Assembly: GCA_036172245.1 (NCBI GenBank)
Contig: JAYWIR010000004.1
Location: forward strand, 5,208,001 to 5,272,000
DNA length: 64,000 nt
Source: Raillietiella orientalis
Lineage: Eukaryota
Reading direction: 5' to 3'
The translations under genes and the position numbers were made by a program. The notes beneath the pieces are model-generated. The model saw only the letters and a list, made by a program, of their open reading frames with translations. It was not told where the DNA came from and searched no databases. How positions within the stretch are numbered: the first letter of the stretch is position 1; each line of letters begins with the position of its first letter. This document shows positions 17,757-59,360 of the stretch, piece after piece.

Positions 17757-19715
17757 AGCGAAATAGTGTTTGCAAATCATCTTTAAGCAGGTATATTGAA
17801 ATATAACCTTAGAAAATATCTGGGAGAAAAAAGAACATTAAAAACAAAATGCTCAGCAGCTTGCCATTAATAGACTCTTAACACAACCTGTTTCTCGACC
17901 TTCAAGAGGGATTTTAATAAAGCTGTGTTTTTCGAAATCAGGATTCTGCTCATATCATGACTACTTCTTAGATAGGATTTATAGACGAAATAGAAACAGA
18001 GCTAAAGCATTTCCCGATTCTGTTCTACCGGCATTCTTTGATAACGAAAATGCATTCCTGTAGAAGTGAATTATCATAACTGAGGAATTCCAAAGGAAAC
18101 TGCAAACTACAGAGAGGCAGCTTAACTATCCTGGTGATCAGCTTCGATCTTGAAAACATCAAACAAGTAGTTGGGAAAGGAATGATTAGAACCATTTGCT
18201 TTTCTTGCTTTTCAAATTGCCTTCTCGTTTTCCACCAGATCATCTCTTCGTATTAATATTCGATGTGAAGATCGAAGAGCAGAGGGTCGAACAGAAGGAA
18301 TCACTGATTCAATAAATGAAGGTAGGAAAATTTGAGTGAAAAGGATCGCATGCACTTTTGCGGAAATACTTTAGAAATATCGACACCACGAGCCCTTATT
18401 TTCCTAATCCCAAGTACAATTGCGCATCAAAATTCATGTTAATTAAATTAAAAGTTTTTGAAATTCTGAATTAACATTGCAGATGATACTGTGCCATTTA
18501 AACACATACGATTACCCAAGACATCGAAACAAAAGGGAATCGAAAGCAATGTCAGATCTTCATAATGAGAAGGTAAGTCGCATTTGTCTAAGACCAAAAG
18601 CAAATTCTTGATCTCTCATCATCTTCTGAATTACAGACAGATTCCTCGATAACTGATGAGAACTCGAATAAATTAGCTCCAGAGAACAAAATACACGCCA
18701 AAAATAACTTCAGATCACATAGATTCATAGCGTAAGAATAATGCTCCAAATTTCCAAAACAGCAGAATCTGAATTTCTTTCCAGTATGGGATGAAAGTAA
18801 ACTGAATGAATAAATTTTATATTTCACCGATTGCTAATCGTTTTGTAAAGTTTAAAAAGATCAATCAAGATGTTTTGTGTTTGGAACATTTAGGCACCGA
18901 ATCGAGTCCAGCTAATTTCAGTCCTCATCCCAGAGCTCCCCTTTCAAAACTGAAATATTCAAGTTATTGGTCGAATGTGATGACCGATTCCTCGTTCCAC
19001 AATTAACTGTCGTTCACGAAAAGACATCAGTTGCTCCAAAACTTATATCTGTCTTGGAAAATGTAAACTGCATATTTTATAACTGTATCGGTCTTCTGTT
19101 AGAAGCATATATATCCATAAGTAATAAATATGAATTTTCATTGTTTCAAATCGGAGTCACCTTCTTTCTCTCTCTCTCTATTCAGAATAAAAGCTGGTTT
19201 TATCCTGCAGATCAATTACATGCAAAATTATGCAAATATTAGTTTGAAGTATTGCTTTACTTTGTCTATTTTATTTGCTTCACCCACTTCCATGAGCACC
19301 TCGGACAAAGTGAAGCAAATCATTTAGTTATACTCTTGTGGTTGAAAAAAGAAAAATGCTCTCCATCATGTCTTCATTCAGATTGCCAACCAGTAATCAT
19401 TTTCACTTAATGCACTTAACAATAATAATTCGAATTGATTGCATTCTTCTGTGATTATTAAAATCGTGTTACAATTTCTTTCTTTCTTTATGTAGAAAGG
19501 GTCTATAAGTCTTCTATTTTTTCTCAAGAAATGCACCTATGTTTCCGGACGTTTGCGATGCAAAAGAAATGTTTCATGATCCTTTTTGTGTTTGCGAACA
19601 TAAATAAGGCATCTTGACTCTGTGTAAGGAACTAATTTCCAAGTACTTCCAAGTAGATCTTTTTTTGTTTTCCCCTCCTACAAATTTCTGCTTTACAGCA
19701 TTATACGATGAAGAA

Positions 19716-19890
19716 TTGAGTACTGTAACTTCTCTTTCTGTTCTGATATGCTGATATATATTCGAGAATGAAGAGCTTCCATTGGGCAATACAGTAGCAG
19801 AAAAAATATCAGAAATGGAGATGTGTGTGTACCCAACGCTTGAAATGAATCTGTCTTTTCATCAAGTGACCTTTAAACATTACAAAAATA
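19716..19890 (+). repeat. diverged direct repeat, copy 1 (copy 2 at ~21000-21197)
   Basis: ttgagtactgtaacttctc...tgatatgc...tatattcgagaa...agcttccattg...caatacagtagca.aaaa.atatcagaaatggag...cattacaaaa aligns collinearly with copy 2. Confidence 0.75.
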
Positions 19891-20999
19891 GTCTTTCATT
19901 CTTTACATATATTCTGGCAGCATTGCATCAGAAACAAACAGCTTTTTCTAGAAAATCACTTTATTTGGCAAGTTTGTGCCATGAGTTAAGAGTAAATGAT
20001 GACCCTGTTAGTCGTTTTTGATGTATCCGCTTGAAGTACATGTACAACTCGCCTGTACACTATAAGCACCCATCACGGAAATCATGAAAAGGTACTAACA
20101 AAGAAGATCAGTTTATTCATACAGACATTTGTGAAATCTGAGATGATCTACTTTCTCTTTCTTCTATCTCCTTTCTTCTATTATCATACAAATGAAATGT
20201 TTGCTTTGAATTTTGGAGACTGCAAGAGAATATTTTTGCACTGGGACAGAAAATATATAAATAACCTATTTAATTCTTCTGTCTTCGACGAAAGTGAACC
20301 AATTTATTGAACAATAAATCGCTGTGAGATATGGCTTGTCCAACTCATGCTTTTCGCTTGCAAACTTGCAAAATGAATTGCTCTGTCTCAGTCTGCATTT
20401 TCACTTTCCAAGAGTGAGGTCCTTCATGTTTATTAAAATTCTACATTAGCCGCTTAATTCGTCTCTCTCTTAACGTGTCGCGTCTTGAGTTCAGTTCTTC
20501 TCACATATTTTTCTGTTTTCCAAAGAGCCGCAGCAATTAAGTTCTGCTTGATCCTATGGTTGTATAGGACATATTGCTCAGAACATATTTGCAAGTACGC
20601 AGTGTAATCTGCAAGAGGAGTTTACTTCTCTTTTAGGTATCTGAAAAGAGGATTTGTATGGAGTGTGTAGATTTATCATATTACTTCACGCTTTCCCCCT
20701 TTCAAAACTTCGACTTTCTCATCGAACGTTCTCACTCCATGTAAATCCTCTTTTACTAATTACTGAATTGAAAGTCAGCAACCTTTTAATCTTTGGGATA
20801 TGGTTTCGATGATTTGCAATTTCCTTTCAAAGCAAAGAGTTTGAATTCATTTTTAAGATTCTCTGCTTTAGCTACACGCTTTGATCTCATCCTTTAAGCC
20901 TTGAAATTATTAATATTTTTTCAGCATAGCCACGAACAAATTGTGCACATGTGGGTTATGATTTCCGTTTAAGTTCTCTTTCTGTTTCTCAAAGTAGAC

Positions 21000-21197
21000 T
21001 TGAGTACTATTGCTTCTCGTGCTATTTTGATATGCCAGCATATATTCTAGAACGAGGAGATTTTCGTCAGCTTCCATTGAATCAATGCAGTAGCAAAAAA
21101 CATATCAGAAATGGAGGCATTTATTTGTGCGTTTCGCAGTATGTTTTTGAATATGATCCTTCTATTAGTTCTGATGGATGCATTACAAAACATACTT
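21000..21197 (+). repeat. diverged direct repeat, copy 2
   Basis: ttgagtactattgcttctc...tgatatgc...tatattctagaa...agcttccattg...caatgcagtagcaaaaaacatatcagaaatggag...cattacaaaa. Confidence 0.75.
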
Positions 21198-38900: not shown

Positions 38901-40887
38901 TCGTTGCCAAGGCAACACTGAAGGCCCCGACTGTCGTTGTCACAGGACGAAAGAAGACAGGGAATGTGGGGAACCTTTGACGACAAGTTCGACATGTGTC
39001 TTTCAAAACGCTGCATTGTTCCCCTGAGCATCTTTCCCTGAGGGAAGTGTCCCGCATCATGAGTACAGGATGGAATGCATGGTCCAGCTCTTCCACGCCT
39101 TTTGATCCCTACTTCTCGTTGCAAGAACCCCATCAAGATTCCCCGTTCAGTCATCTGTAGCACCCTCTGAGGTCTACTAGTCCTCCTGATGAGGGAGGCG
39201 ATATGATCATCTCTCACCGTGGGGGTGAACAGGGGGCCTTACCCTTTTCCCTCGAGGAGTCCCAGGAGGACCTCCGTCCTGGGCGCGGCTTCCGCTTGCG
39301 TCGGATGCAAGGGAAGACTTCAAGGAGATCTTCTGCAGCAGGGAGCGAGGGAGTCGCTCTCCTGCGCGCTCCCCATCGGGAAAATGGCTGATATCAATTC
39401 TGGGACCAGCGGAGCAGCCTCCGCGTTCGGCAACTCGCCGCCGCCGGCGCCTTCGCGAGGAATCAGCCCTCGAAAGCGCCGTCGAACGAATCGAAGCAGT
39501 GACTCCTTGCCCGCATCAGAGGCCATGCGGTTGCAGTCTCTGCGCGTGACACCACCAGATGTCGCCTGAACGACAATCTGAGCCCCTTGCTCTTCAGCAT
39601 TTACTCCGAATTGGCGCTGAGAACATACGGGAAGACTCTGTCTCGCCTGCCACGCTCATGCCCAGGCACACCGGACGTGTCAGAGTATGCGGGCGATCTT
39701 CTGCTGCTTACCATGTCCATCCTGGCGTCGGTGCTCGGAGATTTCTTCGGGCTAAGCTGAGGGACAGAACTAGAGGAGAACAGGGCGAAATCTTCTGTGG
39801 TAGGAGTCGGTTCGGCGTGGACAGGGAAGCTGGACTGGATCCGCTTGGGGATCCCCACGGCTAGGTACCTGAAGTACCTGGGCATCGCGTTGGGAGACTT
39901 CTGCCTGTCAGAAGCATGGTCAGGTCGTCTCCAGGAGGTAGAGTTGAAGATCAGCCCGTTCCTGGAAGGCCAGTTTCTCCTCCCGGAACGGGCTGCGGTG
40001 TGGAATGCGTTCGCAGCTCCCATCCTCCGCCCCTTGCTTTTTGTTTGCCCCGTCTCCCCCCCAGTTGAAGAAGCGAACAAAGGATCTCTTCCGTATCGCC
40101 CTGTGGGACAACGGGAGTCCCCGAGTGAAGCTGCAGGACTTATGCGCTCCGCGTCGGGACGGCGGTCTCGGCCTCCTGTCGATGGAGAGCTTGGAAATCC
40201 AGCTGCGATGGCGCACCATCGCCATCGCAGCGAAGTTGTGGAGCATCCCTTGGTGCGTTCCGGCCCGCCTCCTTGCCAGCCGTGTCTCCAGGACTCAAGG
40301 ACTCGCATCTCATCTTCTGGGCCCCGGCCGGAAGATCAGAAGATGCGGCCTTCTCCTTGGACGCATGGCCACACTGGCCAAGGAGAACGGCTGGATGGTA
40401 TGCAGCCCCGTCAACTCCTCCGCATGGCTGGAGGAATCTGTTGGAACGTGGGCGAAGTTAAATGCCCCGAGAAGTAACAGCTGGAACTGCCTGAGATTCG
40501 GGTCCTACACCCGCTGCACCCTGCGGACCATTCTGGAGTACCCTGAGAGCAGAATGAGGTCTGAGACCACCCCTTTAGCCACGGCGATACCCTTTCTGAC
40601 AAGGGCGCTTCACAGCAGCCGGACACCGAAGTGGCAAGCCCTCTGCCGTATCGCTGGCAGAGAGAAGATGAGCGGTTGGACTACGGGAGAGCTGTCAGAT
40701 GCTACGGTTCCGAGTGTTCTTCCGCGTGGACTTTTGCGATGGGGCGAGCTGCTCGGCATCCAGACGGATGATGACCTGAAGTGGCTCCCAGTGTTAAACG
40801 GATCCAGGATCCTCCCCCTCAATTGGCAAGAGTCGGCGCTCCTGTTGTTGCATTGGGGTCTACCCTGCAACGCCAGCCACTTCCATT

Positions 40888-40900
40888 GGACGAGGGGGAG
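40888..40900 (+). repeat. 13-bp target-site duplication, left copy (ggacgagggggag)
   Basis: Identical to 41548-41560; the two copies flank the antisense LINE fragment. Confidence 0.9.
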
Positions 40901-41547
40901 TTCCCACCCGGTCACGCCGGGGCGTTTATTTCTAAACTCTGTACATTTGCGGTACGAAGCCCGCTACGGCCAATAGATCGTGGGGCCTGCTGGGAAGCCG
41001 GTGCGCAGACCGGCTTGACTCTCCTCGGCAGCAGTGGGGATGTGGAAGAAAACAAAAATAAAAATAAAAAGGAAAACAAAAAAAAGAAACACTTGGGTGG
41101 GCCAGGAAGGGATCACTGTCCGCTGGAGGAAGAGACCATCCTTTCCAGGATTCCCTCGAGGTCCCTCTGCATAGCTCCCAGATGGGACCATCCGATCGCT
41201 ATTCGCAGGTAGCGACCCGCGTGTACGATGGGGTCCCCATCGCTGCTTCCTCTGTTGGCTGCGCTCCACTCAGCCACAATTCCTCGTAGGCAGCATAGCG
41301 CTGCCAGGACTGAGGCTGGTTGCAGGGAGTCTCTCACGAAGAGGAGTCGCACAACGTCTCTGGGGGGACCGCCGACCGGCATCCGGATTCCTTCTCCCCA
41401 CACACTGCACACTCTGTCCCACCTTCCCCAACGTCCAGTGATGGCGGCGCGCGTGGCAGGGAAGACTCCGGTGCAACAGCAGCAGCGCCGTTTCCTGCCA
41501 CTTGAGGGGGTGGATGGACATGTCTATAAATACCGGGGACCAATTTA
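40901..41547 (-). mobile_element. 647-bp 5'-truncated LINE copy of a related subfamily, inserted antisense
   Basis: Encodes PLKWQETALLLLHRSLPCHARRHHWTLG / ECAVCGEKES / LLFVRDSLQPASVLAALCCLRGIVAEWS...DLEGIL, homologous to the host copy. It has its own T-rich 3'UTR, AATAAA (40925-40930) and terminal hairpin, and is flanked by the TSD. Confidence 0.92.
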
Positions 41548-41560
41548 GGACGAGGGGGAG
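41548..41560 (+). repeat. 13-bp target-site duplication, right copy
   Basis: Identical to 40888-40900. Confidence 0.9.
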
Positions 41561-42163
41561 AGTAAACCCTGAGTGTGCGGGGAGAGGGAGTCCCTCCCCC
41601 ACCTGATAGTTGACTGTCCTGCCCTCTGGCCCCTGTGGGAACGTCTCGGAACGACCCTTGGGATACCGGTCAGCGACAACCCCAGTGACGTTTACAGCCT
41701 TCTCTTCGTGCGGGACGCCCTGCAGCAAGCCGCAGCTCTGGCAGCACTTTGCTGCATCCGTGGTATTGTGGCGGCTTGGAGTGAAGTCGAAGATGAAGAC
41801 GCCAACGAGAGGGACGCCATTCCGTATGCTGTTCGCTTCCTGAAGAGAGCTAGCGAATGGTCCCAGTTGAGTGGAATGAAGAAGGACCTCGAGGGCATCC
41901 TGCAAAGCATGGACCCCCTCTTAGTGGTCAGTGATCCCTTCCCGGCCCTCCAAATTCTTTTTTTTCTCTTATTGTTTTACTTTTCTTTTTGTTTTTTCCC
42001 CATTCCCTTCCACTGCGGAGGAGAGCCACGCTGGTCTGCGTCCCGGCGTCCCGGGAGGTCCTGAGAAATGGTGGCCGTTAGTGGGGCCTTGTACCACGTG
42101 TTGTAATGACTATATGAAGAATTTAAATAAACGTCCCGGCGTATCCGGGTGGCAACGCCAAAA

Positions 42164-42600
42164 CCTGGAGGAAGGCGGTTCATGGGGAACTGGTCGCAGA
42201 ACTCTCGGACTGAGCTTTTCAATCTGTCCCAGTCCGAGAGCGTGTGCAGTTGATGTCCTCGCAGAAGGGTGCGGAGATGCTCCGCTGCTCTTGCGAGGCG
42301 CAAGCAGTCCCCTGACAGGCGCCACGCTTGAGAGGCTCTTTCGCGCTTGTGTATCTCGAACACAAGTCGAGGGTGGTCGGACAGCTCTGACGGGAGCGCT
42401 CCACGATTTCCCACCCGTGTGCACAGGTGGTTGTCGAGGAACATGCGGTCTATGCTGTTCGCCGTCTCAGCGTCACCAGCCAAGTTGCTCGTTTACATGG
42501 TTGAGCACATCTCGTTGACCAGGCGTGCTTGTATATCGGACGCACCTGCCAGTATGCGACGTTAAAGTCGTCGGCTATTAGGTGTGCGCACGTACTCCAC
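42164..42600 (-). mobile_element. LINE ORF2 APE endonuclease C-terminal half (pseudogenised)
   Basis: LIADDFN (like GDFN, 42561-42581), NSIDRMFL, ELSDHPRL (SDH at 42373-42381), then WRLS and WDRLKSSVREFC, typical of L1/Tx1 post-APE sequence. Confidence 0.85.
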
Positions 42601-43550
42601 GACCTTCTGCTTCTCCTACCCGGTGGCGAGGCTTTCCGCCGCCGTCGCTGCTGCTGGAGTGGGCAGCTCTTCTACCGCCGACTGCCACGGCTTTTTCGTT
42701 TCCTGCGGTTTGTGTTTCTTCTTCTGCTGGTGTTGGTGGTTTGTTGGGAGGCCCGCGTCGACGACGACGGCAGAGCTGGGGAGCTCCGCGTTCTGCTCCG
42801 CTTTCCTCCTCCTTCTCGCCTCCACTTTCTCCACCCTTCTCGCCCTCGCCTCCGCTTCCCGAAGTCTCCGGGCGACGAGCTAGTCGGAGTACCTCTCGCA
42901 CTCCTTCTTGAGGTGCCCGGTCACTCTGCAGTGTTCACACTGAGAGGGCCTGGTGCAGTACTTCACGTAATGTCCAATCCGGCCGCACTTGAAGCAATGT
43001 GCCTTGGGGCAGGCACCCACGCGATGGCCAAAATCTTTGCAATCTGCACAAGGTGGGCTGCAGGCGGTTGCGCACCTGCACGTCTTGGGAATACTGGTGG
43101 ATGGCGAGGATTCCCGGGATCTTCGCGGCCGCAGATAGCTTCAACTTGACTCCGTGGTCTCCCCGGAGAAAATCTACTCCATTTGGTATTGGAAAACCAC
43201 CTTCTTAACCTCTCCGTATTGGGAGAACTCCCACATGTCTCTCTGGGTGGTGTTGCAGTGAACATCGTTCAGGCTAGACGGCAGTGGTTGACAGCTCTCC
43301 CGATCCCCGCAGCCTCCTTTCGTTGACGGCGATGCCCTTTTCGATGAGGGTCTCCTGCAGCGCCTTGTCCGCGGTGTAGACAGTGAAGCCTGTCGCTGAC
43401 GAAATAGTGGCTCGGAACAAGGAAATGGGAGGGGCTGGTGATGTTCTAGCGTGTGAAGGACGTGTGTCCGGATGGCCTGTGGTCATCCAGACCAGGCCGA
43501 GCTCCTCGCTGGTAATGCTCGCTCGTCACTGTTCCGGTGTCGGTCCGGGT
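42601..43550 (-). mobile_element. LINE ORF1 (gag-like) with three CCHC zinc knuckles, frameshifted and with stops
   Basis: CADCKDFGHRVGAC-CFKCGRIGHYVKYC-CEHCRVTGHLKKEC at 42898-43050 (translated manually), followed by a charged low-complexity tail. Confidence 0.9.
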
Positions 43551-43579
43551 TTTCCCCAGTTCGACTTGTGGTGGAATGA

Positions 43580-45370
43580 ATTTTTCAATATTCATTCATA
43601 CAAGTGTTCTGTGATGTCACTGGTTTTCAGTTTTCACTTTCAGGGTTAGTCTTCGGGCATCGAGTCACTGAGTTTGCGCGGGGAATTCACTCAGTGGACT
43701 ATGTTCCTGAATCCTTCGCAGGATGTAACAGTACGTCCAAGTGGGAAGACGCCCACAGCTTCTGATCCCAATTTCCCTCTTCACTAATCCTTTCAGGATT
43801 TCCACAGCTGGCACAATGTTTATTCCGATCCATATTTTTGCTCTTCTCACAACGATGCTCGTGATAAAGAGGGCGATGGTGATGAGGACCATTGGGTTGT
43901 ATCGAGGAACGTTGCCATTCCTTTCAAACATCCCTGCCAGGATCTCCATCTTGTTCATCCTCTGCAGGTCTATCACCTCCTTCAGCTTGGCCCAGTCCTG
44001 ATGCAGCGTCGGGCAGGTGAGAATCTGGAGTTGGGTTTCCCTGGTTCCACAGTTCTTGCACATCTCGTCCTGCGTGTTCCCTGACCAGTGTCTTTCTCGT
44101 TCGCTCGTCCAGTCGGCAGAAGGCCACTCCGAAGAGCATCTTGGGAAAGAGGACTCCTTTCGACAGGTTTGCCCTCTGCTTCAGGCAAAAGTCGAGTCGG
44201 ACGTATTTTCCAGACTCCTCTCGTTTTTCCCAGGATTTCTTTCCACACGTGTTTCAAAGCCGAGGCGTCACCGATGTGGATTCCCAGGTACTTGATTTCT
44301 TCCACCACTCGGAATCCTGTCTCCGTTAAGGTGGAGAAATCCAGGATTCCGATGGGCAATAGCTAGAATTTCTGGGCGTTGATCTTCAAGCCCAGTCTCT
44401 TTATGGACTCGACGACACCGAGGAACGAATGCTGATCCCTCTCGTCCTTCAGGAAGTAGAGGAGATAGTCCGCATACCCAGGTGCGTCAGTCTGTCGTCG
44501 TGTAGTTGTATTCCTTGCAAACGGCCGCCACAGTGCAACAGTGACGAAACCGCCTCCATGTACACCACGAACAGCATCGGACTAAGGGTGTCTCCTTGGC
44601 GGATTCCCCTCTCCATCCGGATGACTGCCGTATCTTGCCCATTGATGGTTATCTTGCAGTACTGTCCTTCGACATTCTTCTCCACGTAGTCGCCGAAGTA
44701 TTCCGGGTAGCCCAGTTTCCTCAAAATCTTCAGCAGCATGGTCTACGGTATCGAACGTCTCCATATCCGTACAGCCCAGCACCAGGTTGTCGCCGATGTA
44801 GCGACTGTAACCTATGGTGGTCTGGGCACACTTCACGTTGTCAGACATGCTGCATCCGGCCACCGAGCAAGTCTGCATTGGGAAGATGACGGATGGGAGC
44901 GTCTTCCTTAAGCGGTTGGCCCAGATCTCGGCCAACCCCTTTGCATCCGTGTTCAAGATGGAGATAGGCTGCCATTGGGTGACCTTGGTCAGGTCTCCTC
45001 CCTTTGGCAACAGTCTCATCCTGCTCTCGTCGAACGACTAGGGGAGTCTCCGTTCTTCTTGGATGCGAAGCGTCAGCTCGTGAAACAACCGCAGGTAGGT
45101 ATGTAGGTATCGCTGATAGTAGTGCGAGATGGACACGCAATCAGGGCCTGCAGCCACATCCTTGCGGAGTTCTCCGAATGTCTGCTTCACTTCTTCCATG
45201 GAGATTTCCTCTTCTAAGCTTTCTTACTGTTGCCTGGTAAACCTCTTCTGTAGATGTCGAACGAAAACGGCGGTCTTTCGTAGTCAAACATTTGCGTACC
45301 TCGGCATCGACCCGGACCGACACCGAGGTCCGCAAATGTTTGCTGTGAAGGATCGCCTACCCTTTTGAAT
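43580..45370 (-). mobile_element. L1/Tx1-like LINE RT domain plus C-terminal zinc finger and 3' end (pseudogenised, internally deleted)
   Basis: AAGPDC, LLPKGGDLTKVTQWQPISILNTDAK, ANRL, DMETFDTVDH, RGIRQGDTLSPMLF, YADY (~44465-44476), GLKIN, IKYLGI, then CKNCGTRETQLQILTC. The stop is at 43665 and there are several frameshifts. Confidence 0.93.
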
Positions 45371-45481
45371 GATCGACACAGCTCTCTGGCGGACGCTCAC
45401 GAAGTCCGGAGGAAATGAGGAATTTTCAGATTTATCATCCAAATTTTCCAAGGCATTTATTATTAAATTTTATTTATTATT

Positions 45482-45521
45482 ATTTATTATAAAATTTTAT
45501 GAATGAAATTTTATAATAAAT
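45482..45521. repeat. AT-only 16-bp inverted repeat within an A/T-rich patch
   Basis: atttattataaaattt-tatgaatg-aaattttataataaat. Confidence 0.85.
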
Positions 45522-55146: not shown

Positions 55147-55884
55147 GAGCATCATTCACAGCGAGATGGATCCACAAACCAGATACCTGCATCTGCATCG
55201 GGGCATGCTGCAGATTCTGTATCTAGAGCTGGTAGTATTAATGAAGCTGCGCAAGATAATCTGTCAGTGGCTTCTGAGTTGCACTCAGAAACTTATGGCA
55301 GATTGGCTCCTGATGCAATCAATGCCAGCATCATGACTCTCATCAGTTTTGATTTATCTGTTGAGAATTTAAGTCAGCGTGCCAGGAGTAGCCATGAAGC
55401 AAGCTTTGCAGAGGATTTTTCCACAAATGAATCACATCAGGCTGTATCTCACCCCAGTATAGCCTCACAGCACAGACATTGGAGTGATTGCCAGTGCAAA
55501 CAATGCTGCACTTTAAATCAAGGCCCTCATGTACTCTTGTGCTCTCTACTGTGTATGCCATTGGTGATGCTTATAGGTATTCCTGCCAATCTGTATCTTG
55601 GATTGAGGATTTGCTTGGAGTGGCTCCATTCTGCCTGCTTTGGGCATGGGCGTGCTATGCAAATGTTTGGGTGCTCCATTGTGCTATTTATTTTATTGCT
55701 TCCCATTGCTATTTGCTTAAGTGTATATTGTGCTATACTACAACTTTCCTGTGATGCTGTACGTTGGGGACAGATGATCTCAGACTATTTCCATGGAAAT
55801 AATCTGGATCATGGTTTTTTTATGTGGCTACGTAATTCTTTAAATTCAGGACCTATTGCGTGTCGCTTAACAAGTGGATGTTAA
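55147..55884 (+). CDS. TMEM169: TMEM169-like transmembrane protein, main/terminal coding exon (5' end unresolved)
   Basis: GPHVLLCSLLCMPLV, YCAILQLS..W and DHGFFMWL parallel the TMEM169 motifs GPHVVLWTLICLPVV, YAAVVQLSW and EKGFCGWL. The frame is open back to a ttccttgtag acceptor at 55146; AATAAA at 55947-55952. Confidence 0.8.
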   Translation, partial: EHHSQRDGSTNQIPASASGHAADSVSRAGSINEAAQDNLSVASELHSETYGRLAPDAINASIMTLISFDLSVENLSQRARSSHEASFAEDFSTNESHQAVSHPSIASQHRHWSDCQCKQCCTLNQGPHVLLCSLLCMPLVMLIGIPANLYLGLRICLEWLHSACFGHGRAMQMFGCSIVLFILLLPIAICLSVYCAILQLSCDAVRWGQMISDYFHGNNLDHGFFMWLRNSLNSGPIACRLTSGC

Positions 55885-55981: not shown

Positions 55982-56517
55982 TCAAAGAAACGCTGGGTTA
56001 TTATGCTCAATGACACAGCGCCGACAGATTTGCCTTAAGCTACGATAGCCAGAAGGAGTTACAGATGTGCACTCTTGAAGGCTCAGCTGTTGCAGACCTC
56101 TACAGCACAGTGCTACCTGACGCAGACCGTTTTCACTAATTTGTTCACAGCCACGAACACTGAGTCTCTTCAAATTCAAGCATCCTTTTGCCAGAGCATC
56201 CAAACCGCAGTCCGTTATATCACACTTGCCCAAGTCCAAGGCACGTATACGACAGCACTTCTGTGACAAGGCTTCCACTGTTCTGTCGCTAACGGCTTCA
56301 CAACCACGTACGTTTAGGTACCGCAGTTTGGTACAATGTTGGATCAGGTATATAACTCCCGAGTCGGAGACTCTATCACATTTGGCAACGGACAGGTAAC
56401 GCAGGCTGCCTCCAACACTGGCAAGGTGATACAGACCGTAGTCCGTAATTCGGGGACAATCCGATACGCTTAGTTCTTTTAGTTCGTTCAGCAGGCATAA
56501 GTATTGTAATGCAACAT
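55982..56517 (-). CDS. FBXL7: F-box/LRR-repeat protein 7, last coding exon
   Basis: AMN1-type LRRs ending CRRCVIEHNNPAFL*, matching the FBXL7 C-terminus (CKRCVIEHTNPAFF); ttttcag acceptor. Confidence 0.93.
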
Positions 56518-56565
56518 CTGAAAAGTATGTGATATCTGGTGCTCTCGCTATGCTCGATCCATTAC

Positions 56566-56754
56566 CTGTTATGTTTACACAACGTCTTAGGTATAAATAC
56601 TGAAGGTGCGTGCTGAACCTCACCAGCTCTTTTAAGGTGTTATCTTCTATTCGGCGGCAGTCGGTAAGATCGAGGTAATGCAACTGCTGAAGAACTGCCA
56701 CCTCGTTTTTAAGGTACGAGTTTCTTGTAAACAACGAGTTGACTTCAATACATC
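56566..56754 (-). CDS. FBXL7: FBXL7 internal coding exon (189 nt)
   Basis: CIEVNSL...YLDLTDC..IED...LQYLYLRRCVNIT; ttccag acceptor, GTAATG donor, phase 1/1. Confidence 0.9.
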
Positions 56755-56867
56755 CTGGAATACAAGAGCTCAAATTACACAAACTCCTCCGCGTATGCCG
56801 GTTCATTAATTTTTAATCAAATGCGTTCCGCAGACACGGGTGCGACTTTTTACGAGAATCACTTTAC

Positions 56868-57713
56868 CTGCAATGTCTAAATGCTGAAGTTGCTTACATT
56901 CCGAAATTATTTCAGCGACTCCTTTATTGGTTATTTTAACACAGTTTCTCAGTTCGAGCTGTCTCAGCTTGGAGCACTTTTTGGCGATAAATGAGAGACC
57001 TGTGTCCGACAATCTAGAGCATCCGTTTAAAACAACTTTTTCCACCCCTAAGCACAGACGTGTCGCATTTTTTGTGGTCAGTGCCCGAGTGAGAGATTTC
57101 AGAGCCCAGTCGGCGTTCAAGTTTTGTCCTGTTAGCTTGATGGTCGTCCACATGCGCGGGTCCCATACAAGATCACGCCATCTCCGGCTCACACATGCAC
57201 ATACACAAAGCTGATCCGCTGTCAAATATGAGAAAATGGAGTGTAAGAGTTTATCTGGCAACTTGTCGAAGAAAGATTTTTTAATCGTACGATTCGGGAG
57301 TCTCTGGGGGATCTCGGGAGGACGAGGTCTGGGACCGTCATTGGGGCAGCTACTTAAAATATTCATATCTAGCGTTTCCGGGTAACCAGTACATCTCTTT
57401 GGTGTCAGATGAGATCGCGAATGCGATGTACTACTGGACGTCACCAGAGTGTGATATCCAAGATCATGGCTCGGCGAGCCACGATCGCTCAGTTTCACGA
57501 GAGAGCTTGTCACATATGTAGAGGCATCCGTAATTGTATCACACAGTTTGGAGGGAGCAGTATGGATGTGCATCGGATAAATGCATTCACTGGGAGGGAG
57601 GGATTCACACGAATTTCTTGCAAACCGGTAGTAAGACATGTCTGGGGATTCGGAGCTGCTGGACTCGATGCTGTTTTCTAAGTTTCCGGGAGATATTCCG
57701 GAATCAGTACCAT
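56868..57713 (-). CDS. FBXL7: FBXL7 exon with Ser-rich N-terminal region, F-box and first LRRs (846 nt)
   Basis: FDKLPDKLLHSIFSYL...VSRRWRDLVWDPRMWTTIKLTG F-box; strong ctctctctgttgcag acceptor, GTAAAG donor, phase 1/1. Confidence 0.92.
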
Positions 57714-59360
57714 CTGCAACAGAGAGAGAAATGAAACCCTTACTATGTACATTGCAGTTGAAAATGGTCAAGACGCGCCAATTCATGAATTTTTTTTTCT
57801 CCCTCCGGAGAGAGAGAAAAAGTGAGAGAGAAAATACGCGGAAGAGCTGGCACACGAGACCAACTCATTTCTCATAGCACCAAAGTGATCGGTGTGCAGT
57901 CGTTCTGCTCAATTTTAAGAGGTTTCCTTCCGCAAACCGTCGAACTGCTCCGGTGGATTATTTATTACGGAATCGAAACAGCATCTCTTTTCATAAGTAC
58001 ATCACCGGAGCTACTCCCGTTTTTTTTTTTTTTTGTCGGTAGACAGAGTGCTGCGAGCACGACGCAACGACGGTCGGCAAGAAAGTGTCGGAGGCGCTTT
58101 TGCTTCCCGGATCCCGTCTGTGGTAGGAAGTGGGCCTCTCCATCTGCTGTCTTCGAAAACCACGCGAACTGCATGTTCGGAATGAATGGCGCATTAACGA
58201 GAAAAAGAAAAGAAATGCACACTGAAGGCGTGGAGGACGTTATCCTCGGATTCCGCTCCTTAACCCCTGACGGATCCTTGGGAGCACTTGGGCTGAGTAC
58301 CAAAGAAGTCAGACGCAACGATGGGGCAGTGGTAGGTGAAGGGAGGGGGGGGGAAAAAAAAAAAAAAAAATCTTCTTCGCAACTCGCGCGCCGGCTTCGA
58401 GGAGGCTGCGGATTTTCCTCGCAGGCCGCGTGCCGACTCGAAATCGCCTGCGATTGCCTCCTTGCTTCGAACCCGGTTCCGCTGACTCGCGGGCATTCCG
58501 ACAGGAACGCGTCCACCAGAGAACGCGTGCCGCCGAAGGAAACATCCACATCGGCGTCCATCCTCGAGCTGCGTCCGAAGTGTTGCAAGAAGCGTTGCCG
58601 TCTGCCCCACTGCTTCTCGGTTCCGGAAACTTTTCCCATGCGCGAAGCGTCATCCTCGTGTTTTAATTAGGAGCTGCTGCTCGACTTGAATTCCTTACTT
58701 GCATTATGCTGTGAATTTTTACATGTGACGTAATGATTTATTACGCTGCTGCACGAAATATGGGCACTTAACATTCTTTTCGCTACCCTCCACCTATTTA
58801 TTTTTCGTGACCTGTGTTCCGTTTCAGATTTTCAAGATAAATCAGGGTAGTGCCGTGATGACTGCAGTTACTAATTAATAAACAAAAGCTCCCGTGTTTA
58901 CTTCGAATGAGGCCCATCACGTACACCGACTTGGTATATATATATCCTTTTTATTTATTTTTATTTATTTACACGCCCCACCGGCGGAAACTCCCCCCCC
59001 CCCCTCTCCCTCTCTCTTTGGAATGTGTGCACGCATTTCGTGTGTTGCAGTAGTACGGGATGCACACGTCCCCCCCTCTCTCTCTCTCTGTGTGTGTCCA
59101 TTCGACGAGCTTTCGTGAAATGGGAAAAGCCGTGCCAAGGTTCAGACGACTAAACAGCAATTTTCGGAAAATTAATTCCTCTGCTGATCCGTAACTCGCC
59201 GAATTTCGAAACCCTCGCTTCCCGCGCTTGCTAAGAGCACTGCTGCCGACGCCGATCGAAAAGGGGAATCGGGAAGAAGGGGGAGAGAGAGGAGAGGAGA
59301 GAGATGGGGGGGGGGGGGAGCCGGACAGGAGGCGCGATTTTTTTCTTCCCTTCCTCATAC

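Follow-up and report, generated by a model that had tools for sequence, protein, structure and literature searches.

LINE remnants, genes and family identity

The window (the whole 64-kb stretch of DNA that we analysed) has a GC content of 31–39%, except for a block at about 26–50 kb in which it amounts to 58–73%, with a peak of 73% in 28–30 kb. A TMEM169-family ORF is found at 55147–55881 (plus strand; Pfam E-value 3.5e-13), followed by an F-box/LRR gene that consists of two abutting ORFs in different frames (55985–57864, minus strand); among named relatives of the F-box ORF, a beetle protein ranks first (35% identity), by which the genome resembles that of an arthropod, probably one that is poorly covered by databases. 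Apart from the LINE copies described below, the only other repeat revealed by self-comparison of the window is a pair of direct repeats of about 110–120 bp (74% identity; 19712–19820 and 20996–21116) in its AT-rich part. Between 26 and 39.5 kb, long ORFs (up to 508 aa) are observed in all six frames. We rejected the long ORFs of the 73% GC stretch as genes, given that GC1 = GC2 = GC3 and that they have no Pfam matches; the segment has the appearance of GC-rich DNA without coding function.

A LINE on the plus strand, which we refer to as the host, follows in two parts. Its left part (39505–40900) was delineated by tblastn with P0001, a database protein described below, which shares 60% identity with the host over 178 aa (39563–40090) and 47% over 172 aa (40032–40544). 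It contains the late RT motifs (LSPLLF and YAGD), the thumb, and the C-terminal region of ORF2 up to a point just before the Cys motif, and it is interrupted by frameshifts and stops. The host copy lacks its 5' portion; its start can be placed approximately, somewhere in 39505–39563, and no credible host sequence was found upstream of 39563. The right part (41561–42155), delineated by alignments and translations, contains the zinc-knuckle remnant VCGERESLPHLIVDC, the ORF2 C-terminus, and a 3' UTR with a T-rich tract that ends in the terminal motif without a poly(A) tail. Without the insert, the host measures 1991 bp. As for a target-site duplication (TSD) of the host's own, comparison of its 3' flank with its 5' end region gave no exact repeat of at least 8 bp and no near-exact repeat of 9–15 bp.

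Between the two parts of the host lies the insert (40901–41547, minus strand), a 3' fragment of an L1-superfamily LINE that measures 647 bp, is truncated at its 5' end, and was recognised by its alignment with the host (72–76% identity) and by its translations. Its sequence starts inside ORF2, at the equivalent of host position 40777, and takes in the C-terminal region of ORF2 plus about 190 nt of 3' UTR; its 3' end is complete and has the same conserved terminus as the host. The insert has degenerated: it contains a frameshift, and about 67 bp are missing from its zinc-knuckle region in comparison with the host.

Two further LINE fragments, both on the minus strand, follow the host, so that the insertion sits in a nest of LINE debris. 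The first (42156–43500) adjoins the host 3' end and encodes an ORF1 with three CCHC knuckles (zf-CCHC, Pfam E-value 2.9e-06); by eye, we also recognised an RRM-like stretch, the end of the endonuclease (with an 'SDH' motif) and a pre-RT linker, and the pre-RT region of the protein P0019 gave a weak tblastn match to 42396–42187 (E-value 0.008). Most of the endonuclease is missing from this remnant, which stops at the 3' end of the host LINE, and no RT continuation was found beyond the host, at its other side; the host insertion may have been accompanied by a deletion, or the junction may reflect a later rearrangement. The second is a third L1-like fragment (43560–45271) that extends from the RT (RVT_1, E-value 3.7e-05; tblastn match at 44216–45271) to a C-terminal Cys motif (CxxC...H...C), and it shares about 29% identity with P0001. 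At its 3' end it adjoins the remnant with ORF1 in a head-to-tail arrangement, and an AT-rich tandem repeat with periods of 14–27 nt (45455–45520) is located just upstream of it.

Using the 313-aa C-terminal ORF of the host as a query, we exhaustively searched 1.84 billion cluster representatives and retrieved only two proteins: P0001, a 619-aa RVT_1 protein, and P0002, a weak match that carries zf-RVT. Judged via its single close database relative, P0001, the family is an L1-superfamily LINE, since P0001 matches human LINE-1 ORF2p structures (E-values 7e-40 to 5e-39) better than R2 proteins (7e-17 to 1.5e-11). Further relatives of P0001 are all at most 32% identical to it, and many of them have the PF03372 + PF00078 + PF13966 architecture. 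Both copies in the window start downstream of the endonuclease region (PF03372), and P0001 lacks its N-terminus as well; PF03372 is carried by more distant relatives, with identities of at most 30%. The RT fragments of the host taken alone had no match in PDB or Pfam, and a homologous-protein search with the host ORF that was confined to longer proteins returned none. For zf-RVT (the C-terminal Cys/His motif), no Pfam match was obtained at E ≤ 0.1; by eye, a resemblance to the motif of P0002, which bears zf-RVT, is seen in both copies: the host has NPEC(A)VCGERESLPHLIVDC, interrupted by a frameshift, and the insert has ECAVCGEKES.

Within the window, self-blastn, tblastx and nhmmer (using a two-copy profile and the whole host) detected the host and the insert only. 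Protein-guided locus searches in metagenome_contigs, genome_contigs and viral_contigs found no relative, and a search with its 3'-terminal pattern gave 0 matches in the same three collections. The family is poorly known, with only one relative of >30% identity among 1.84 billion cluster representatives. It is GC-rich (about 58%) within an AT-rich genome.

A poly(A) tail is absent from both copies, which end in ...CCGGGTGGSAA and pass directly into the flank or the TSD. By pattern search, both copies were found to share a conserved 3' terminus of 28 nt: in the insert it reads AAATAAACGYCCCGGCGTRWCCGGGTGG and precedes GAA (40904–40931, minus strand), and in the host it precedes CAA (42125–42152, plus strand). 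These are the only two matches in the window, and 25 of the 28 positions are identical between copies that are otherwise 72–76% identical. Such a conserved terminus without poly(A), as read from these two copies, suggests that the RT may recognise a specific 3' end. The terminus contains AATAAA and an inverted repeat (CCCGG-N5-CCGGG) that could form a 5-bp stem. A stem is predicted in both copies and the folds are no better than those of shuffles (z 0.18 and −0.38), so we make no claim of an RNA structure; an Rfam search of the window returned no family.

An antisense LINE fragment flanked by a 13-bp target-site duplication

The 64-kb window contains two exact copies of the 13-mer GGACGAGGGGGAG, one at 40888–40900, where it adjoins the 3' end of the insert, and one at 41548–41560, where it adjoins the 5' end (both on the plus strand). 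Allowing at most one mismatch, the window has four matches where 0.08 would be expected, a number that was reached in none of 100 shuffles. The 647 bp between the two copies are homologous, in reverse complement, to the flanking plus-strand LINE: local alignments between insert and host have 364/507 (72%) and 95/131 (73%) identical positions, and a global alignment with free ends has 480/632 (76%). In the global alignment, the first base of the insert (41547) corresponds to host position 40777 and the last base (40901) to host position 42155. The homology therefore runs from the first to the last base of the insert, and the TSD touches both of its ends, i.e., a duplication directly flanks the element as for a LINE insertion by target-primed reverse transcription (TPRT).

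Deleting the insert and one TSD copy in silico yields ...NASHFHWTRGRVNPECA... in the host frame, the repaired site reading ...LNWQESALLLLHWGLPCNASHFHWTRGRVNPECA... in that frame; the host-frame reading across it, HFHWTRGRVNPECA, is colinear with the insert's own homologue. The zinc-knuckle remnant comes next in the repaired host, but in another frame, because the host has a small frameshift of its own there.

A preliminary description of this locus had proposed a minus-strand fragment of 647 bp bracketed by a 13-bp TSD, and this is what we observe. It had also stated that removal of the insert restores the host; the reading frame is indeed restored, with the caveat that VCGERESLPHLIVDC lies off-frame through the host frameshift. 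The peptides it had quoted, WSPVF..PLKWQETALLLLH for the insert and WLPVL..PLNWQESALLLLH for the host, are both present in the translations, and its remark that the target is GC-rich rather than of the TT/AAAA type holds too, as G or C occupies 10 of the 13 TSD positions.

Judging by the 72–76% identity, the source of the insert is a different subfamily and not the host copy. This divergence also bears on whether retrotransposition was involved at all. An alternative would be that the host underwent local inverted duplication or rearrangement, given that replication template switching can generate inverted repeats, or that the locus is an assembly artefact. The two arms differ by 24–28% and by several indels (one of about 67 bp), whereas the flanking 13-mers are identical; at the divergence of the arms, identity at all 13 positions would have a probability of about 0.014–0.03 (0.72^13 to 0.76^13), so the arms are not a local duplication of equal age. 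Moreover, the inverted segment stops exactly at the conserved 3' terminus of the family, and neither an artefact nor a template switch would yield a perfect, frame-restoring TSD. We consider local inverted duplication of the host unlikely on these grounds, and give hardly any credence to an origin other than retrotransposition.

The event is very probably an ordinary nested TPRT insertion, which left a dead antisense fragment in an older related LINE. In this proposed course, the plus strand would have been nicked at GGGGGAG^AGTAAA, between 40900 and the next host base, by chance inside the ORF2 C-terminal region of an older relative that was already 5'-truncated. The 3' OH at 40900 would have served as the primer on which the RNA of an L1-superfamily LINE was reverse-transcribed; the first-strand cDNA would then be the plus strand, because the sense strand of the insert is the minus strand of the window. 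Reverse transcription would have ended after 647 nt. A second nick, on the minus strand and 13 bp away, would have provided a 13-nt 3' overhang (CTCCCCCTCGTCC), to which the cDNA would have been joined across the staggered break, with fill-in producing the 13-bp TSD. Both the nick position and this order of steps are inferred from the TPRT model.

A duplication of 13 bp fits within the L1-type range: the TSD of human L1 is reported to be about 15 bp (PMC4245944), and TSDs of the poplar LINE Celine are given as 10–30 bp with a mean of 15 (PMC11288735). Provided that the parent element was similar to the host at 40770–40776, microhomology at the 5' joint would not have exceeded 2 nt (GG), and low microhomology at this joint is described as ordinary for 5'-truncated L1 insertions (PMC2912911; PMC1920257). 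The locus thus provides a clean textbook case of a nested 5'-truncated LINE insertion, which can be used to order insertion ages in this transposon nest.

Target sequence and truncation point

The landing of the insert in a relative can be accounted for by the regional setting, because the GC-rich block of 24 kb holds nested LINE debris and a concentration of G-rich targets. The density of GGAGAG is 2.42 per kb in 26–50 kb compared to 0.27 per kb in 1–26 kb, about nine times higher, so any preference for G-rich targets would direct insertions toward transposon debris that is rich in GC. A GC or G-rich target bias of this kind may exist, as suggested by the one insertion site and by a sequence shared between the 3' flanks of both copies. 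The flanks as such differ (CGCCAAAACC for the host and CTCCCCCTCG for the insert); following the terminal AA, in the sense of each element, both begin with C-N-C-C, i.e., CTCC for the insert (40897–40900) and CGCC for the host (42156–42159). With two copies at hand, this shared C-N-C-C could represent the last bases of the element or microhomology at the 3' side, with GGAG-3' and GGCG-3' as the respective primer ends.

Another possibility would be self-targeting, in which a sequence in the ORF2 of relatives, just upstream of the zinc knuckle, is recognised by the family's endonuclease or through annealing of the 3' end of the RNA, analogous to target-specific LINEs of the Tx1 group that recognise other repeats. 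Target specificity has been described for the Tx group of the L1 clade (PMC3747384), and self-targeting would be in line with a target that is not of the TT/AAAA type and with the C-N-C-C at the start of both 3' flanks. The host, however, is one of the two copies and lies at a different sequence, beside the presumed EN-RT linker of another LINE. The insert's own homologue of the insertion site (41424–41442) is uninterrupted, and so are two sites that match the TSD at 12 of 13 positions (47541 and 62636), neither of which carries a copy; a target within its own ORF2 would in addition destroy potential source copies of the element. We regard self-targeting as very improbable.

The preliminary description had further noted that the truncation point of the insert corresponds to a host position close to the insertion point. 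The distance of about 110 bp that it gave is right: the homologue of the truncation point lies 111 bp from the insertion site when measured to the TSD start, and 124 bp when measured to the nick. Its wording that the element had entered a relative almost exactly at its own homologous position is overstated. As a consequence of this offset, the host segment directly left of the nick (40777–40900, plus strand) has its inverted homologue at the 5' end of the insert (41424–41547), an overlap of 124 bp in the global alignment by which the insert runs beyond its homologue of the insertion site. The two segments form an inverted repeat, with a DNA duplex energy of −78.2 kcal/mol compared to −45.1 ± 2.8 kcal/mol for 200 shuffles.

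This arrangement could be taken to mean that homology influenced the truncation, with the cDNA or the RNA template, once past the coordinate homologous to the insertion site, pairing with the neighbouring host and thereby ending reverse transcription about 120 nt later, either by snap-back of the cDNA onto 40777–40900 or by pairing of the RNA with host antisense DNA. The duplex energy speaks for this possibility, as does the fact that the last 124 nt of the insert are the inverted homologue of the 124 nt directly left of the nick, and so small an offset has just ~12% probability by chance. If the insertion point is uniform, the chance of an offset of at most 124 bp in the 1991-bp host fragment is 2 × 124 / 1991 = 12.5%; the true chance is unlikely to be lower, because 5' truncation biases both targets and inserts toward the 3' end, and because the pattern was picked post hoc.

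The strand geometry argues against a role of homology in the joining step. An annealing route for 5' joining has been described (PMC4245944), but homology cannot guide joining by that route here, because the insert is antisense and its cDNA has the same polarity as the 13-nt 3' overhang at the right. The only complementary partner of the cDNA is the plus strand just left of the nick, with which it is covalently continuous. Such a snap-back is thermodynamically possible, as judged from the duplex energy, yet, being intramolecular, it fails to account for the joint seen at the right TSD copy. Pairing of the RNA with the overhang makes two other predictions, an offset near 0 if the overhang–RNA duplex blocked reverse transcription, and a twin-priming inversion if the overhang acted as a primer; neither is seen, the insert being colinear with the host over 0 to 719 host-equivalent nt. 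The parts that would have to pair are just about 73–77% identical, and we found no precedent for homology-influenced truncation in a non-exhaustive literature search. We therefore consider this explanation highly improbable, and the same applies to the broader proposition that the family prefers antisense integration into relatives, with pairing between cDNA or RNA and the host setting the end of reverse transcription.

From the probability estimate and the strand geometry, we infer that the gap of 111–124 bp between the truncation and insertion coordinates is most likely a coincidence, as judged from one event and two copies. The homology-influenced or self-targeting integration put forward in the preliminary description is not supported, given a chance probability of 12%, strands of the same polarity, an offset that is not near 0, a different flank for the host, and the documented nesting of LINEs within their own family in places where elements cluster. 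Some considerations do weigh against an ordinary insertion: it is read from a single event and two family copies, a chance of 12% is not large, the G-rich target and the C-N-C-C flanks make some target or microhomology preference possible, and the inverted 124-bp overlap could in principle pair. If true, homology-guided truncation or self-targeting would be undescribed for LINEs, and recurrent antisense self-insertion with linked truncation points would show that target homology affects TPRT in a way not seen before. A claim of homology guidance is not justified by a single case with a chance probability of 12%.

Comparison with known systems

The head-to-head arrangement of an antisense and a sense LINE segment, with breakpoints close to each other in element coordinates, resembles the products of L1 twin priming. 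There, a single RNA gives rise to both segments, which represent different parts of the element within one shared pair of TSDs (in part after PMC1920257). We rejected twin priming for this locus, given that both arms cover the same 3'-terminal coordinates and are 24–28% diverged, and that the TSD brackets the antisense arm alone.

With the Tx1 group of the L1 clade, the family shares an RT of the L1 superfamily, a putative C-terminal Cys/His motif in ORF2 (recognised by eye here) and insertion into another repeat. Target specificity of the kind known from that group is not seen in the window, where the two copies, which are 76% identical, have two different 3' flanks. The conserved 3' terminus (25/28) is reminiscent of the 'stringent' L1 lineages, which have a conserved 3' end and no dependence on poly(A), and for which a plant example is reported (PMC3747384); an RNA structure in the terminus is not supported here, its folds being no better than those of shuffles.

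Celine elements in poplar centromeres likewise have unique TSDs of 10–30 bp and occupy other transposable elements as well as members of their own family (PMC11288735), and about 7% of the Celine elements in P. simonii are reported to be nested within themselves (PMC11288735). Nesting of Celine follows from the targeting of a chromosomal region, as shown on hundreds of copies (PMC11288735), whereas here a single event is at hand and a regional bias is what its surroundings would suggest.

The 5'-truncated TPRT insertions of L1 elements, as described for human L1 and fish LINEs in cell assays, share with this insertion an intact 3' end, a 5' truncation, a TSD of ~13–15 bp, and microhomology that is slight or absent at the 5' junction (PMC4245944; PMC2912911; PMC1920257). 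Compared to the insertions of human L1 and fish LINEs, the present one has a ...GGGTGGSAA end in both copies in place of poly(A), a G-rich nick site (GGAG^AG, not TTTT^AA), and a family of ~58% GC that resides in an AT-rich genome.
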